Source: Longimicrobiales bacterium (GTDB lineage: Bacteria; Gemmatimonadota; Gemmatimonadetes; Longimicrobiales; Gaopeijiaceae). From it: a DNA stretch of 64,000 nt. The first letter of the stretch is position 1. Each line of letters opens with the position of its first letter. The stretch covers positions 192,001 to 256,000 of the forward strand of contig JAWLHJ010000004.1 in the NCBI GenBank assembly GCA_041690395.1. The letters run 5' to 3'. The notes below the pieces were generated by a model. It worked only from the letters and a program-made list of their open reading frames with translations, was not told the DNA's origin and made no database searches. Made by a program: the position numbers and the translations under genes. Shown in pieces: positions 50,324 to 56,789 of this stretch.

Positions 50324-50806
50324 ATGAAGGAAGATCAGAACATGGAAGCCACCCGGGAGCCCAGCGAGGCGGTGCTGCGTGAGGCCCTCGAAGAGAGCGG
50401 CCAGCGGTTCACCGAACAGCGGGCGGCGGTCTACCGCTACCTGACGAGCACGGACACCCATCCCACGGCGGACGAGGTGCTGGTCGCGGTGCGTCACGAG
50501 CTTCCGACGATCTCGCTCGCGACCGTGTACAAGAGCCTCGAGACCCTGGTCGGCTGCGGCCTCGCGGTCAAGCTCACGTATACCGACGCGTCATCGCGCT
50601 ACGACGGTCGGACGGACCCCCATCATCACGCACGCTGCCTGGGATGCGGCAAGGTGGCAGACCTCCCCGGCAAGCTGCCTCAGCGGGAGATCGACGATCT
50701 CCGCGACCGGGCCCGGAACTTCACGGTGGTCGGCTACCGATTCGAGTTGTCCGGCTACTGCTCCACGTGTGTCCCCGAAGGGGGCCCCGCCCCGTTGCAC
50801 GCCTAG
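50324..50806 (+). CDS. perR: Fur-family regulator, PerR-type
   Basis: HPTADEV, SLATVY, LTYTDASSRYD, HHHARCLGCGKVAD (Asp at the PerR D104-equivalent position), C-terminal CSTC. Confidence 0.8.
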   Translation: MKEDQNMEATREPSEAVLREALEESGQRFTEQRAAVYRYLTSTDTHPTADEVLVAVRHELPTISLATVYKSLETLVGCGLAVKLTYTDASSRYDGRTDPHHHARCLGCGKVADLPGKLPQREIDDLRDRARNFTVVGYRFELSGYCSTCVPEGGPAPLHA

Positions 50807-50837
50807 CCTGGCCGCGCGCCACGGCTCCCCCCGCCGC

Positions 50838-52619
50838 ATGGGCTTCCTGAAGACCCTCGCCCGATTCCCGTGCGCGGCGGTACTTTCGGCGGTCACTTGC
50901 ATCGCGCCGGGGCTCGCGGACGCGCAGGAGGCGGAGGAGTTCCGTTCCGCCGCCGAGACGTCCATGCTCCGAGCCGAGACCATCGAGCTCAGGAGCGGGC
51001 TGGACCGCCTGCTTCTCGCCCCGTCATGGCGTGACGCCGAATGGGGTGTGCTGGTCGTCTCTCTGGACCATGGTGACACCCTCTACGCGGTCGATCCGTA
51101 CAAGCCCCTCGCTCCCGCGTCGAACGTCAAGCTCATCACGACCGCCGCGGCCCTCCAGACGCTCGGCCCCGACTATCGCTTCGGAACGTATCTGATGACG
51201 AACGGGGAGGTGGAGGACGGCGTGCTCCACGGCGACCTCATCCTCTACGGGACGGGTGATCCGGGGATCTCGAGCCGTTTCCATTTCCGCCGCGACGAGG
51301 CCTTTCATCGCCTCGTCGACCAACTCGATTCGCTCGGAATCCGTGAGGTCCGTGGTGACCTGGTGGCCGACGCCTCCTTCCTGCCGGGCCCCCAGAGGCC
51401 CGAGGGGTGGGACCCGCGGGACCTGAACGACCACTTCACCGCAGCCGTATCGGCCCTCTCGTTCAACGAGAACGTGGTGTCCGTGCGCATCACCCCGGGT
51501 GACGTGGGCGCCCCTCCCCGGGTGCAGACGATACCCGACGATGCGGGGATGGAGGTTCTGAACCTCGCCGAAACGGTGCCGGGCAGCCGCCCTCGCGTGG
51601 CCATGCTGCGCGACGACCCGCTCGAGCCGGTACGCGTGGAGGGTACCCTCGGAGCGGGGGTCAGAGACGTGTGGCGTCAGTTCACGGTCTCCGACCCGAC
51701 CGTGTTCACTGCCTCGGTCTTCCGCGCACTGCTCACCGATCGCGAGATCGACGTCCGGGGCGTCACCCGGACCGTGTCCCGCCCGGGGCGGTCGGACCTG
51801 CCTCGACTGTCGGCTCCCTTCGCGGGGAAGCGGGGTGTTCGGGTGCTGGCCAGGCACACTTCCGAGCCCCTGCAGAGTTATCTGGAAGTCGTCAACAAGC
51901 AGAGCCACAACCTTTTCGCGGAGTTGGTCTTCCGTGTCGTCGGTCGCTCCGTCGAGGGCGTGGGATCCACCGACGCGAGCGCGCGGGCCGTCGCCGCCAC
52001 CCTCGCGGGCCTGGGGGTCGATACCACGGGCATGGTCCTCCTCGACGGGTCGGGGCTTTCGGCCGGCAACCGCGTGACCGCGCGCACGCTCGTCGACGTA
52101 CTCGAGCGCATGGCGCAGTCGCCGTCCTGGGGCTACTACTGGGCCACGCTGCCGGAGGCCGGGCGGGCCCGGGAGCTGGGTCGCATGTATCGGACCGCGG
52201 CAGCAGGCAACCTGCGCGCCAAGACCGGGACCATCGAGCGGGTTTCCGCGCTCAGCGGGATCGTGCGGGCGGCCGACGGTGAGCGCCTGGCCTTCTCGAT
52301 CCTACTGAATCAGGCGCCCTCGGTCGCCCGGGCCAAGGCCGTCGAGAACCAGATCGGTGCTCGCCTGGCCTCGTTCGCGCGAGGGATGGGCTCGAGCATG
52401 GACGGTGAGCGTCTCGCCCAGACCGAAGCCCCTGGTCCCCCATACGCCGGGACCGAGCGACATCGCATCAGGCCGGGCGAGAACCTGACCGTCATCGCGC
52501 GGCGGTACGGCATCTCCATGGAAGCACTGCTGGGTGCCAATCCGAGTGTCGAGGCCAACACCCTCTTCGCCGGCCAATGGCTCGTCATCCCCACGGTTCA
52601 GGAAGCGGGCGGCGGCTGA
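50838..52619 (+). CDS. dacB: D-Ala-D-Ala carboxypeptidase/endopeptidase (PBP4, S13) with C-terminal LysM
   Basis: PASNVK (SxxK), GDP, SHN (SxN), DGSGLS, KTGT, then HRIRPGENLTVIARRYG LysM. Confidence 0.9.
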   Translation: MGFLKTLARFPCAAVLSAVTCIAPGLADAQEAEEFRSAAETSMLRAETIELRSGLDRLLLAPSWRDAEWGVLVVSLDHGDTLYAVDPYKPLAPASNVKLITTAAALQTLGPDYRFGTYLMTNGEVEDGVLHGDLILYGTGDPGISSRFHFRRDEAFHRLVDQLDSLGIREVRGDLVADASFLPGPQRPEGWDPRDLNDHFTAAVSALSFNENVVSVRITPGDVGAPPRVQTIPDDAGMEVLNLAETVPGSRPRVAMLRDDPLEPVRVEGTLGAGVRDVWRQFTVSDPTVFTASVFRALLTDREIDVRGVTRTVSRPGRSDLPRLSAPFAGKRGVRVLARHTSEPLQSYLEVVNKQSHNLFAELVFRVVGRSVEGVGSTDASARAVAATLAGLGVDTTGMVLLDGSGLSAGNRVTARTLVDVLERMAQSPSWGYYWATLPEAGRARELGRMYRTAAAGNLRAKTGTIERVSALSGIVRAADGERLAFSILLNQAPSVARAKAVENQIGARLASFARGMGSSMDGERLAQTEAPGPPYAGTERHRIRPGENLTVIARRYGISMEALLGANPSVEANTLFAGQWLVIPTVQEAGGG

Positions 52620-52632
52620 CGCTCGTCCCGGG

Positions 52633-52884
52633 TCAGCGTGCCGGAACACCACCTCGCCCGACCGCCGAACGCAACCGACGGTGCAGTTCCACATCCGACA
52701 TGGTCTCGAGCGTGCGCTGTCCCGTTCGCTCGGTATTCCAGCGGATGTCTTCCAGGGGATACTCGATGGTGGGCTCGTCCGCAGGGCGGAGTACCATGTG
52801 GAAGCGGCCCTTGTAGTCCATTCCGGGCTCCTCGCGCACCAAGGCTTCCCAGATCCGGCCTTCACGATCGGTGAATGTCATCAT
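52633..52884 (-). CDS. Small hypothetical protein (83 aa)
   Basis: GGAAGG SD, MMTFTDREGRIWEA... Co-oriented, 17 nt downstream of the AraC gene. Confidence 0.65.
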   Translation of the reverse strand: MMTFTDREGRIWEALVREEPGMDYKGRFHMVLRPADEPTIEYPLEDIRWNTERTGQRTLETMSDVELHRRLRSAVGRGGVPAR

Positions 52885-52901
52885 GGTTCCTTCCCGGTTC
52901 G

Positions 52902-53702
52902 TCATGCCACCGAGCTGAGCGCCCGGGGACGAATCAGAAGATCGCATTCATCGACGAACCGTTCCAGAACCACACCGAATCCGCCGGCCTCGACGAGCTG
53001 TGTGGGCGTCATGCCGACATAGTTCCGTAGCGCCCGCCGGAAAGCGGATCCGCTCGAGTACCCGAGCTGACGCGACACGCTCTCGGCACTCCGCCCCGGC
53101 TCATCCAGCCACCGACCGGCGTGGAGGAGTCGCGACCAGACCAGCAGATGCCCGAGCGACGGCAGTCCGTGCCGCTCCAGACCCACGCTGAGGTGAGGGC
53201 GCGTGAGCTCCAGACGTTCGGCGACGTCCTCGGCCCCCCAGCCGCGCTGCGCCCCCTCGAGACACAGGCGAACCACCTCGGTCTCACGGCGTGGCAGCGA
53301 CGGGCTGACCACCTTGATCACTGCGGAGGCCGTGCTCCTGCCGAGCGCCCGCCGAACCGTCACCGGTAGCTCCCCGACCATCCCGTCGACCGGAAGCAGG
53401 ACCAGACCCTCGACTCCGGCCCTGCCCAGCCGAAAGAGCAACCGGGTGGAGAGTTCCTCTCCGGCGAGCAGGACGAACACGATGCTCGGATACAGCCGCC
53501 CCAGCTCGACCAGCGCGCCGTCGGGATCGTGGGCCGGGAGCGCGCGTCCATCGATGAGGGTGCACGTCACCGCGTGCTCCCTGAGCGTCCATGTGAGCCG
53601 GGTCCACGTGGCCACCCGGATCAGGGCGTGCTCCTCGCCGAGGGCGAGTGTGGTCGCCTGCAGCATGGAGGAATTCCGCGTCAAAACCGTCGTCAGGGCC
53701 AT
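52902..53702 (-). CDS. AraC-family transcriptional regulator with degenerate receiver-like N-terminal domain
   Basis: C-terminal AEDVAERLELTRPHL...RLLHAGRWL..PGRSAESVSRQLGYSSGSAFRRALRNYVGMTP. N-terminal TCTLID / YPSIVFVLL / AGVEGLV pattern. Confidence 0.85.
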   Translation of the reverse strand: MALTTVLTRNSSMLQATTLALGEEHALIRVATWTRLTWTLREHAVTCTLIDGRALPAHDPDGALVELGRLYPSIVFVLLAGEELSTRLLFRLGRAGVEGLVLLPVDGMVGELPVTVRRALGRSTASAVIKVVSPSLPRRETEVVRLCLEGAQRGWGAEDVAERLELTRPHLSVGLERHGLPSLGHLLVWSRLLHAGRWLDEPGRSAESVSRQLGYSSGSAFRRALRNYVGMTPTQLVEAGGFGVVLERFVDECDLLIRPRALSSVA

Positions 53703-53830
53703 CGATCTTCGAAAAAGACATAGCTACGGTCCAAAAGGATACGTCGCTCCGCCTGGCTTTCAGAAAACTTGAGTTCAGCGGAACGAAGAACCGCCCCTAC
53801 CGGGTTACCTCCAGACTAGGACCGCCTCGC

Positions 53831-53962
53831 ATGAAGACTCTCCGACGCTCCCTGCTCGTACTGCTCCTGACCGTCGGTGCCGCCGCCTGCGGCTCGTCCA
53901 TCACCGCGCCGGACCATACTCCGGATCCCGGTCTCTTCCACACGCCCGATCCGGGACTCTAA
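53831..53962 (+). CDS. 43-aa lipobox prepeptide with tandem HTPDPGL repeats (putative signalling peptide precursor)
   Basis: AGGA SD. MKTLRRSLLVLLLTVGAAAC-GSSITAPD-HTPDPGL-F-HTPDPGL*. Repeat copies differ only synonymously. Confidence 0.8.
   Translation: MKTLRRSLLVLLLTVGAAACGSSITAPDHTPDPGLFHTPDPGL
53915..53959 (+). repeat. Two 21-nt coding repeats (HTPDPGL x2)
   Basis: cat act ccg gat ccc ggt ctc (53915-53935) versus cac acg ccc gat ccg gga ctc (53939-53959). Confidence 0.9.
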
Positions 53963-53972
53963 GCCGGCTGCT

Positions 53973-55799
53973 TCAAACCGAAGCACCCGCGACAGCCCTC
54001 CGCATCTCTCGAAGTCCTTCGCGGACTTCCCGAGGTGCGGAGGGCTTCGTGTCTGCAGCCTTCTCGCTCTCGGTCGGCACATCTTCCTGAAGCAGCCGCT
54101 CGAGGGCTTCCTCCGAGCGGAAGAGCGTTCGGTTGAGTCCGAACTCCTCCGCGTGGCGGACCGCTCGCCGCAGCCACCTCTCCGCCGCGTCCCGCATGCC
54201 GAGCGCCTGGTACGACAGCCCCCGGTAGTACAGGATCTCGGCCTTCGCCGCTCTCGGACCCGACTCCCACCCGAGTGCGTCACACTCGGCCGCTCGCCGC
54301 TCGAAGTCACCGAGGTCCCCGCGTAGGGCCGCGAGGTACGCAAGTGCGTCGAGCGCGTACGTCCTGTAGTACACGTCGGTCGCGTCGCTGGCCACCACGG
54401 ACCAGGCGTCCTCGGCCGCCGCATGGTCGCCGAGATCCACGAGGGCGCCCGCCAGGTTCGCGAGGCACCGGACACGTCCCGCTGCGTCCTCGTACGAGCC
54501 GACCGCGATCCACCCGTGGCGCAGCGCCACATCGAGATTGCCCGCGGCGTGCTCCAGGGCGAGCAGGCCGTGATGGATGGACGCGATCACGTCGCGGCTG
54601 CCCGAGCGGCCTGCGAGGTCGAGTGCGTCCTGATAGCCCGAGCGAGCTTGGGGCAGATTGCCGAGCTCCTGGCGTACGGCCGCAAGACCACCGAGGGATT
54701 GGGCGGCCTTCGCCGCGAAGCCCGCCGCGAGCGCCACCTCGTAGGCGACCTCGTAGGCCCGCACCGACGCCTCCCACCGCGCCGCACGACGCAGGACCCT
54801 GCCCCGGAAACGGGAAGCGTCCACAGCCGCGTCGGCGTACATCACAGCGGCCGCGGCATCGAAGGCACAGCGGTACAGCTCCACGGCGCCGTGGACGTGG
54901 CCCTCCGCTTCAGCACGCTCGCCGGCGGCGACCAACCCGTCCGCGGACGCCTCGAGGTCGCGGCTCGCGAGCGCTCCGAGGAGCGGCTCCCAGGCTTCGA
55001 CCGGATCGCCACCCTTCCTGCAGCGACCAACCAGCTGGTCACGAACGGCATCGATGCGCGCGCACCAGGCCTCTTCTGCCGTATACCCCACGTCACCGTC
55101 GACCAATCCCCGGGCGAGCCGCACGACCAGGAATCGTTGCTCGACCTTCGCGCTGACCTCGGGGCGGTCTTCCCGTCCCTCACAGTCCTGAAGAACCGGG
55201 AATCCGACGAAGCCTCTCGCCTCCGGGGCCCGGAGCCGCACGATTCCGTCATCGGATCCCGCATCGAGATCCTGATGGAGGAGCGCGCTCGCGCACTCCC
55301 CGGAGAGGAAGAGCGCCCGCTGCCGGTCTTCCTCGCCCAGGCGTGGCCGCGGTCCGACGGAATCGCAGACGAGGAACCAAGAACGGGCGCCGTCGCTCCC
55401 GAGCGCCACGGTGAAGATGCTTCCGGCATCCCCCAACTTCCTGCCCGGCGCCCCGGCCGAGTCGTACACGCCCGGCAGGCCGATCTCCCAGGCCCGCTCG
55501 AGGGGCTGCGCCGGAAACGCTCGCCGTGGTCGGTCGCTCATCAGATCGAGCAGGACGTGCGGATGCGGCGAGGACTCGCCGTACTCGTCGATCCACACGG
55601 CGGCGGCCCGATCGGCACCCGTGATCTCACTGAGCTCACTGAGATGCGCGACGACCGCGAGCCGAACGGGATCACCCGAATGGATGGCGCGCGCAAGCTG
55701 GAATCTCTGCCGCCTCCGGCTACGATGCTCGGAGAGGCCGACGACTTGAGTCCGGCCGGTACGCACCGCCCCGGATTCAGCGATATTTGTCGGGAGCAT
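53973..55799 (-). CDS. GAF-like + tetratricopeptide repeat protein, cytoplasmic
   Basis: N-terminal ITGADRAAAVWIDE...VALG...WFLVCDS...EEDRQ...ECASAL is GAF-like. C-terminal TPR helices (LGGLAAVRQELGNLPQARSGYQDAL; LANLAGALVDLGDHAAAEDAW; YYRGLSYQALGMRDAAERWLRRA). No signal peptide or TM. Confidence 0.75.
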   Translation of the reverse strand: MLPTNIAESGAVRTGRTQVVGLSEHRSRRRQRFQLARAIHSGDPVRLAVVAHLSELSEITGADRAAAVWIDEYGESSPHPHVLLDLMSDRPRRAFPAQPLERAWEIGLPGVYDSAGAPGRKLGDAGSIFTVALGSDGARSWFLVCDSVGPRPRLGEEDRQRALFLSGECASALLHQDLDAGSDDGIVRLRAPEARGFVGFPVLQDCEGREDRPEVSAKVEQRFLVVRLARGLVDGDVGYTAEEAWCARIDAVRDQLVGRCRKGGDPVEAWEPLLGALASRDLEASADGLVAAGERAEAEGHVHGAVELYRCAFDAAAAVMYADAAVDASRFRGRVLRRAARWEASVRAYEVAYEVALAAGFAAKAAQSLGGLAAVRQELGNLPQARSGYQDALDLAGRSGSRDVIASIHHGLLALEHAAGNLDVALRHGWIAVGSYEDAAGRVRCLANLAGALVDLGDHAAAEDAWSVVASDATDVYYRTYALDALAYLAALRGDLGDFERRAAECDALGWESGPRAAKAEILYYRGLSYQALGMRDAAERWLRRAVRHAEEFGLNRTLFRSEEALERLLQEDVPTESEKAADTKPSAPREVREGLREMRRAVAGASV

Positions 55800-55853
55800 G
55801 CTTCAAGTTAGTGTCCTTCTCCGTGACGACACAACATCTTTGCTCATCCTCGC

Positions 55854-56789
55854 ATGAAGCCCTCCTCGCCGCCCCTGGCCGCCGACCTGGGACTCCTCGG
55901 GCTCGCGGCCATCTGGGGCGTGAACTTCTCCGTCGTCAAAGTCGTACTCCGCGAGATGGATCCCTTCGCGTTGAACGCCCTGCGATTTCCTCTGGCGGCC
56001 CTGGCGTTCTGGCTCGTCCTGCGCGCCCGTGGAGGCATCAAGCGTCCCGCCGCCGAAGACGTTCCCCGAATTCTCCTGCTCGGCCTGGTCGGCAACGTCG
56101 TCTACCAGGTCTGCTTCATCCAGGGGCTGGACCTGACCCTGGCGGGCAACGCGAGCCTTCTGCTCGCCACGACCCCGATCTGGACGCTCGTCCTTTCCTC
56201 CGTGGCCGGTCACGAGCGTCCGAATCTCCGGGTCATGGCCGGGATCGGGTGCACGCTCACGGGCATCGTCCTGATCGTCCTCGGGCGTGAAGGCGGATTG
56301 ACGCTGCAGGCCTCGACCCTCAGAGGAGATCTACTCATGCTGGGCGCCGCCGTCCTGTGGTCGGCCTACACCGTCTGGGGACGCACGCCCGTCGCCCGCT
56401 ACGGTCCCCTGAGGATGACCGCGTGGAGCCTCTGGATCGCCACGCCGGTGATCGTGCTCATGGGCATTCCGTCGCTCCGCTCCACCGAGCTGGCCGCGGT
56501 CTCACCGGGGGCCTGGCTCGGCGTGGTCTACGCCGGAGTCCTCTCGATCGCGGTGGCCTACGTGCTGTGGTACCGGGGCGTCCAACTCCTGGGCAACAGC
56601 CGCACGGCGGTGTACTCGAACCTCGTTCCCGTGATGGCCCTGGTCACCGCGTGGCTGTGGCTCGGTGAGACACCGGCGGGCGGGCAGCTGGCCGGAGCGT
56701 CCGTGATCCTGGCCGGGCTCTGGCTGTCGCGAACCGGTCAAGCACCCGGTCCGAGCTCCTTGCGGTGGCGGAGCTCCGGGAATTCGTAG
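55854..56789 (+). CDS. DMT/EamA family transporter
   Basis: IWGVNF, two EamA repeats, about 10 TM segments, YSNLVPV..LGE. Confidence 0.92.
   Translation: MKPSSPPLAADLGLLGLAAIWGVNFSVVKVVLREMDPFALNALRFPLAALAFWLVLRARGGIKRPAAEDVPRILLLGLVGNVVYQVCFIQGLDLTLAGNASLLLATTPIWTLVLSSVAGHERPNLRVMAGIGCTLTGIVLIVLGREGGLTLQASTLRGDLLMLGAAVLWSAYTVWGRTPVARYGPLRMTAWSLWIATPVIVLMGIPSLRSTELAAVSPGAWLGVVYAGVLSIAVAYVLWYRGVQLLGNSRTAVYSNLVPVMALVTAWLWLGETPAGGQLAGASVILAGLWLSRTGQAPGPSSLRWRSSGNS

Follow-up and report, generated by a model that had tools for sequence, protein, structure and literature searches.

According to passages of PMC10075063, quorum sensing through peptides that are read by intracellular receptors has been described for Bacillota; Pseudomonadota and Actinomycetota typically use small molecules made by enzymes. 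In the Rap-Phr systems of Bacillota (RRNPPA group), a tetratricopeptide repeat (TPR) protein without a DNA-binding domain of its own is encoded beside a short exported propeptide with a short C-terminal unit. The same plan is found in a cassette of three genes in the 64,000-nucleotide stretch of a Longimicrobiales bacterium (Gemmatimonadota), called the window below. Its peptide carries two copies of a seven-residue unit, and a tandem duplication of the pheromone unit also occurs in phage Rap systems, as passages of PMC11343458 report. The genes are, in positions of the window:

52902..53702, minus strand: AraC-type transcription regulator of 266 residues (open reading frame (ORF) and Pfam HTH_18)
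53831..53962, plus strand: prepeptide of 43 residues (ORF with a lipobox)
53973..55799, minus strand: GAF-like/TPR protein of 608 residues, the predicted peptide receptor (Pfam TPR and an AlphaFold2 (AF2) model)

The TPR gene and the peptide gene are convergent, with their stop codons 10 nt apart, and the AraC gene and the peptide gene diverge across an intergenic region of 128 nt. A genome search found one copy of the cassette in the source genome. All of these ORFs, coordinates and orientations agree with the original prediction, which was made from the window's sequence and proposed a quorum-sensing-like circuit, an interpretation that our analysis partly supports. We estimate the probability that the three-gene unit works as a Rap-Phr-like peptide signalling loop at about 0.58.

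Across Gemmatimonadota, the phylum to which the homologues of the cassette were assigned, many of them to Longimicrobiales, the TPR gene, the convergent lipobox micro-gene and the divergent receiver-AraC gene stay together as a conserved unit. Linkage was examined in loci L001-L090 minus three duplicates and L043, of which 80 contained the 3' end of the TPR gene and at least 500 nt beyond it. A convergent lipobox ORF was present in 79 of the 80 and an AraC homologue in all of them (upstream of the TPR gene instead in L038-L040, which belong to one family), and the adjacency that had been suggested as a check was thus borne out. A second set of 143 loci, partly from the same genomes, contributed 93 usable loci, 92 of them with AraC. 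Here, the peptide detector made 90 automatic calls, two of which were false, and peptide genes were found by eye in L163 and in three loci that the detector had missed. As the same detector was positive at 19 of 1186 ordinary gene ends of the source genome (1.6%), the adjacency is not due to chance.

The TPR protein was matched in 93 of the 201 genomes of the host's family at E ≤ 0.001. With thresholds of E ≤ 2e-40 for TPR and E ≤ 1e-30 for AraC, 72 and 74 genomes were positive, respectively: 69 contained both, 124 neither and 8 one alone. The cassette occupies a fixed genomic site from which it is often absent (about two thirds of the family genomes lack it), and L251 and L252 are decayed remnants; in the former, a single deletion has brought the 5' end of TPR next to the 3' end of AraC. 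Phylum-wide, the TPR profile was matched in 216 of 401 genomes at E ≤ 1e-8, although many of the weak matches may be unrelated TPRs; this tally counts one unpublished genome (G341), which is used for no other claim. Families other than that of the host have a shorter TPR protein that lacks the GAF-like domain (open frames of ~420-450 residues) and mostly single-unit peptides. Contigs of relatives from two soil RNA runs of one study span the TPR and peptide genes, but such contigs cannot show transcription.

Several individual loci deserve mention. In three TPR-peptide pairs without AraC (L091, L093 and L097), the peptide gene starts, as judged by eye, just downstream of a tRNA-like sequence, which suggests insertion at a tRNA site. 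L096 has two near-identical tandem peptide genes beside one TPR paralogue. P0059, a TPR homologue with 61% identity labelled Thioalkalivibrio sp., is located on a 3.8-kb contig that is probably misbinned.

The prepeptide consists of an n-region with Lys/Arg, a hydrophobic core, an AAA/C20 lipobox, a linker and the sequence HTPDPGL given twice (residues 29-35 and 37-43):

53831-53887, plus strand: lipoprotein signal peptide (sequence pattern)
53888-53890, plus strand: codon of Cys20 (lipobox)
53915-53935 and 53939-53959, plus strand: HTPDPGL units 1 and 2 (repeat)

The lipobox and the Sec/signal peptidase II (Sec/SPII) class were assigned by sequence pattern, and Met1 and Cys20 are invariant in 25 aligned homologues. 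In the host's own family, the mature part starts with the Cys and continues with a short linker, usually containing Gly/Ala-Pro and sometimes a Cys-Cys loop, that is followed by 1-10 copies of a seven-residue unit, with 66 distinct units in 92 loci. The two HTPDPGL copies differ in 5 of 7 codons, every change being synonymous, and the same holds on a larger scale: adjacent copies show 273 synonymous versus 5 non-synonymous differences (791 codon pairs, 39 genes). Hence, the peptide gene is translated and under selection. Because the pattern by which units were picked favors similar units, the non-synonymous count is biased downwards, but a synonymous excess cannot arise in this way. The 131 peptides collected are 29-98 residues long; 58 have two extra cysteines, one has a single one and 72 have none. 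Judging by their sequences, the paired cysteines would fit disulfide formation after export to an oxidising compartment.

In L104, L155 and L204, units with His1 and Tyr1 are mixed within one peptide gene, as would be expected for intermediates of a specificity switch by duplication and divergence. In L008 and L105, which have the same sequence, the reading frame of the peptide gene meets a TAA at the first repeat codon, with TPR and AraC intact; this allele is possibly a signal-null 'listener' or an assembly error. In the families without the GAF-like domain, many peptides (L042, L045, L049-L060) end in Cys-x5-8-Cys around the C-terminal motif, a segment that could form a disulfide-closed ring.

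The N-terminus of the 608-residue protein is not signal-like. Its AF2 model, with a predicted local distance difference test (pLDDT) score of 91, contains an alpha/beta domain (residues 22-175) with a helical solenoid behind it, and can be divided into a GAF-like domain, a helical linker, about seven TPR helix pairs (282-571) and a C-terminal helix. The helices of residues 200-278 precede the TPRs, and RapH_N was not among the families listed as matches. The TPR assignment of the original prediction was upheld by Pfam TPR_12, which scored above its cut-off here and was found in 53 of 54 homologues. As for the GAF domain that it had also proposed, the order of alpha and beta elements in the modelled domain fits, but profile support is weak: of 37 homologues, 10 matched GAF_2 at E ≤ 1, the best with 0.003, and of 54 homologues, 2 did so at E ≤ 0.01, the GAF_3 match was likewise weak, and a sequence search of the PDB yielded no match for this domain. 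Most of the invariant residues of the protein are located in it. It is lineage-specific, being missing from the other families, and so it is not a core part of the cassette. A stand-alone GAF-like homologue of ~165 residues is encoded elsewhere in the source genome (G000:C1:542026-542526, L244) and in L245-L250. Its gene is flanked by one for a small membrane protein and one for a coiled-coil protein that we take to be PspA-like, near an M20-type peptidase gene. This homologue is a possible origin of the domain that has been fused to the TPRs in the host's own family.

In Foldseek searches, the TPR protein matched LGN/GPSM2 (best by E-value), MalT and the Rap structures 6t46, 6t3h, 4gyo and 8rsv. 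The Rap of pLS20 with Phr (6t46) had the highest query template modelling score among the matches listed, at 0.40 (0.63 for the target), and RapJ and phage Rap ranked close to it. The profile match to Rap 6t3h (E = 2e-4) was weaker than those to other TPRs.

Covariation between the peptide unit and the TPR protein provides an indirect indication of contact. A first pass over 51 loci pointed to TPR residues 487/488, 481, 445 and 370, and the candidate residues were fixed before 39 held-out loci (<85% identity) were fetched. In the held-out set, Tyr1 occurred with Gly/Ser487 in 9 of 15 loci and His1 with Ala487 in 15 of 17; Asp370 accompanied Pro5 in 0 of 14 aligned loci, and Asp/Glu accompanied Ser/Thr5 in 10 of 16. 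Where unit position 1 is His/Tyr, Asp484 is present in 77 of 78 loci, and where Gly/Ile/Val/Leu takes that place, it is present in 0 of 9; the pattern spans five changes on the tree:

54348..54350, minus strand: codon of Asp484, which takes TPR position 5 in the helix of residues 476-492 and is predicted to pair with peptide residue 1 (covariation)

The tree-aware test simulated traits with an equal number of tree changes and took the best of ~700 columns from the GAF, TPR and AraC regions. The column-corrected P value was 0.0013 for position 1 and D484, a pair noticed post hoc, 0.005 for position 3 and residue 481 (two changes only) and 0.04 for position 4 and residue 445. For six of eight peptide traits the best column was on a TPR A helix, four of them at positions 2, 5 or 13, which contact ligands in the HOP structures described in passages of PMC1261162. 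Between L129 and L204, whose TPR proteins differ at 59 positions, His1/A487/Y488 and Tyr1/G487/H488 switch together. Five loci of ambiguous register were left out of the analysis. We regard the covariation, for which the original prediction had proposed a test, as real at position 1 and as suggestive elsewhere. It is quite probable that HTPDPGL binds in the TPR groove, where the pairs would place His1 near Asp484, Ala487 and Tyr488, Pro3 near Tyr481 and Pro5 near residue 370.

The regulator combines an atypical receiver (REC) domain (residues 1-120) with an AraC/XylS helix-turn-helix domain (~138-250; HTH_18, E = 5e-12). That its N-terminus is REC-like, as had been proposed, is agreed upon by three approaches: the alignment profile matches the CpaE and HupR receivers, the AF2 model (pLDDT 92) has a (beta/alpha)5 N-terminal domain, and Foldseek matches this domain to REC domains with a root-mean-square deviation of ~2.8 Å. 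Among 88 homologues, Asp51 is kept in 84 and Asp10 in 75 (Asn in the window), whereas the Thr/Ser position after beta4 has Arg/Gly and there is no conserved Lys after beta5. Normal receiver phosphorylation needs both the Thr/Ser and the Lys, and without them this receiver is not a canonical response regulator. With 795 clusters at E ≤ 1e-30, the receiver-AraC family is a large one; it includes a tandem double (P0301), a fusion or read-through with peptidase S13 (P0348) and a paralogue in the source genome (G000:C1:107774-108664) with no TPR or peptide gene near it.

A conserved motif in the intergenic region gives the following predicted elements:

53709..53725, plus strand: half-site 1, consensus TCGRAAAAGRYATAC, of the predicted AraC operator (6 nt from the AraC start codon)
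53730..53746, plus strand: half-site 2, overlapping the predicted -35 of the peptide promoter (21 bp downstream of half-site 1)
53765..53770, plus strand: predicted -10-like box with A in position 2 and T in position 6, oriented towards the peptide gene (conservation)

The motif is ungapped in 55 loci and recurs in 34 of 34 held-out loci. AAA.GA is kept at +21 in half-site 2, and an identity peak at a lag of 21 is seen both in the host's family (58 loci) and in the families without the GAF-like domain (18 loci), more clearly in the latter. The -10-like box lies at a fixed distance, with its A in 50 and its T in 54 of the 55 loci. Simple scans of the sequence returned neither a consensus sigma-70 promoter nor a terminator. 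With its own locus omitted from the matrix, the full motif scored 53.3 at best in the genome versus 12.6 for the next site. This layout is that of AraC/XylS activation from a site overlapping the -35. The regulator probably binds the 21-bp direct repeat and activates the peptide promoter from the -35-overlapping site, and it probably represses its own gene.

Put together, these elements would probably form the following circuit. AraC would activate the peptide gene, and the precursor would be lipidated and exported. By analogy with Rap-Phr, unlinked proteases may then release the seven-residue units, which would be re-imported, and a unit in the TPR groove would free AraC from inhibition. With several copies in tandem, each precursor would deliver a larger dose of signal, and the variety of unit types would give strains channels of their own. 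That the peptide-free TPR protein holds AraC inactive through the atypical receiver and that the peptide relieves this hold, resulting in positive feedback, seems to us on balance the better bet. The same analogy leads us to infer that units are released and imported, that the TPR protein contacts AraC, that regulation has this sign and that the signal acts between cells. The boldest version of this scheme we consider an even chance: a phylum-wide, independently evolved Gram-negative family of peptide quorum-sensing systems, with multi-copy lipoprotein pheromone cartridges, dozens of pherotypes, a residue-level code in the TPR groove and positive feedback through a pseudo-receiver AraC.

A number of observations weigh against this signalling loop. 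The best folds by E-value are eukaryotic LGN TPRs and not Rap, and RRNPP-specific and subfamily hidden Markov models did not match the TPR homologues. The 484 pattern was noticed after the fact, in the held-out table; five other peptide traits were not significant (P 0.09-0.51), and two of the eight had their best column outside the TPR. Independent-pair sign tests, which are underpowered, were never significant (median p 0.125-0.5), and three of the omitted loci (L036, L037 and L087) have Gly1 with Asp484 under the chosen register, which would weaken the signal. The source genome has no second full operator, and half-site 2 plus the -10 is missing from each of 15 sites with one mismatch that lie elsewhere than in the cassette, in five genomes. 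No AraC-TPR fusion was found in 150 representatives, and the cassette contains no protease or importer gene. Finally, AraC was absent from the examined flanks of all ten weaker TPR paralogues, seven of which have a peptide gene, and therefore AraC is not an obligatory target.

The TPR protein might instead serve as a cell-autonomous sentinel or timer that reads the cell's own peptide, as unexported precursor or as fragments recycled from the periplasm, and reports the state of secretion or of the envelope and not density. A lipid-anchored precursor would be retained, the outer membrane adds a further barrier, no dedicated release machinery is linked and the fixed locus adjoins a PBP4-LysM gene, all of which would suit such a role. 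However, the diversity of units and the mixed-unit genes fit kin-specific signalling better than a housekeeping sensor, and the absence of the cassette from most of the family speaks in the same direction, so that we find this explanation unlikely. In another scheme, peptide and TPR protein are ligand and receptor, but the target of the TPR protein is some other protein, reached by its N-terminal helices or its GAF-like domain, or else the TPR protein is a co-activator or a phosphatase on Asp51, while AraC merely drives peptide synthesis. The conservation of Asp51, the AraC-less peptide-TPR pairs and a regulon search for AraC that found none agree with it; but AraC and TPR are gained and lost together, the L251 deletion joins the two genes' ends, and the receiver lacks the Thr/Ser and the Lys. 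We find this scheme still harder to accept, and its probability small.

The lipopeptide itself could also be the product, either a surface lipoprotein or a precursor akin to ribosomally synthesised and post-translationally modified peptides (RiPPs), with the TPR protein as a chaperone or maturation factor under AraC control. The repeats resemble the repeated cores of multi-core RiPP precursors, and the RiPP-associated TPR model HaaT was weakly matched by 17 of 54 homologues (best E 7e-9). This match is at a generic TPR level, though, a modifying enzyme or transporter was linked in no locus examined, and the TPR gene, running towards the peptide gene, shares no promoter with it; a role as end product is very improbable. 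Because DNA of 70% GC is rich in short ORFs, we also considered that the genes are neighbours by chance or that the small ORF is spurious, an idea that linkage and the synonymous-change counts refute and that retains next to no probability. The Rap-Phr-like signalling loop is what we prefer.

The genes that flank the cassette are the following:

50769..52619, plus strand: penicillin-binding protein 4 (PBP4, peptidase S13) fused at its C-terminus to a LysM domain, encoded downstream of a fur-like gene
52633..52884, minus strand: small protein of 83 residues (likeliest start 52884)
55854..56789, plus strand: DMT/EamA transporter gene (ORF)

The small gene does lie beside AraC, as the original prediction had it, but its start is most likely 52884, since homology begins at Met22 of the longer frame. 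It was rejected as a cassette-specific member: 186 of the 201 family genomes have it, and it stays near fur where the cassette is missing. The protein, with the motifs DYKGR and WNxERT and no family match above cut-off, is the product of an unnamed core gene that may share a transcript with araC. Short flanks were compared in 97 loci; the DMT gene, considered as a candidate peptide exporter, was close to the TPR gene in 44 of them, each belonging to the host's own family. Both appear to be ordinary neighbours.

Five Omp85-family matches in the source genome indicate a diderm host, which, with the assignment to Gemmatimonadota, agrees with the non-Bacillota diderm originally predicted. The genome also has an LspA gene and one gene for a family-5 peptide-binding protein. 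The 43-residue peptide had no Pfam match above cut-off, and no NCBIfam or PADLOC model names any of the three cassette proteins (PADLOC 0 for 3/3). Literature searches found no description of the cassette, although supplementary tables, which could list it, and most subscription papers were outside their scope; a term search of PMC12700828 found no mention of Gemmatimonadota. If the proposed circuit is true, it extends peptide signalling to cells with two membranes, in a common but poorly studied phylum of soil and sediment, and raises the matter of how a lipid-anchored precursor is released and re-imported. Since the signal, the predicted contacts and the operator can be read from the sequence, synthetic 7-mers and purified protein would suffice for a test and the host need not be cultured, and the 66 natural units would form a ready-made receptor-ligand set for studies of specificity.

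Among the systems already known, enterococcal cCF10/PrgX resembles the cassette in that a seven-residue peptide of a lipoprotein precursor is read by an intracellular receptor with a TPR fold. Enterococcal pheromones, however, derive from a lipoprotein whose gene is unlinked, namely from its hydrophobic signal peptide, whereas the unit described here is C-terminal to the lipidated Cys, polar, repeated and encoded by a linked gene. The regulator shares HTH_18, tandem half-sites and a divergent layout with AraC/XylS activators, but its sensing domain has an atypical receiver fold in place of a cupin and its apparent target is the peptide gene. The TPRs of LGN/GPSM2 and MalT are the best structural and sequence matches by E-value; they are generic, with 12-20% identity and no shared gene context, and LGN binds extended peptides in its groove.

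Compared with Rap-Phr, the cassette has a diderm host, convergent genes, an invariant lipobox, up to 10 copies of acidic, Pro/Gly-rich units, a GAF-like N-terminus on a 608-residue protein and a linked receiver-AraC with its own operator. Passages of PMC10075063 give 250-500 residues as the default receptor length of RRNPP_detector, which excludes the 608-residue protein but would admit the ~420-450-residue relatives. The propeptide, of 43 residues and 10 nt away, falls within the 10-100 residues and -60 to 400 bp of the RRNPP definition. Its lipobox satisfies the relaxed level (Sec/SPII) only and not strict Sec/SPI, and merely 211 of the 2,734 RRNPPA propeptides with a predicted route are Sec/SPII according to passages of PMC9765709. 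The host belongs to Gemmatimonadota and not to Bacillota or their mobile elements. The cassette thus lies outside the strict RRNPP definition because receptor length, signal type and host differ. It is best read as Rap-Phr-like in its predicted working, and at most as a candidate member of that family.

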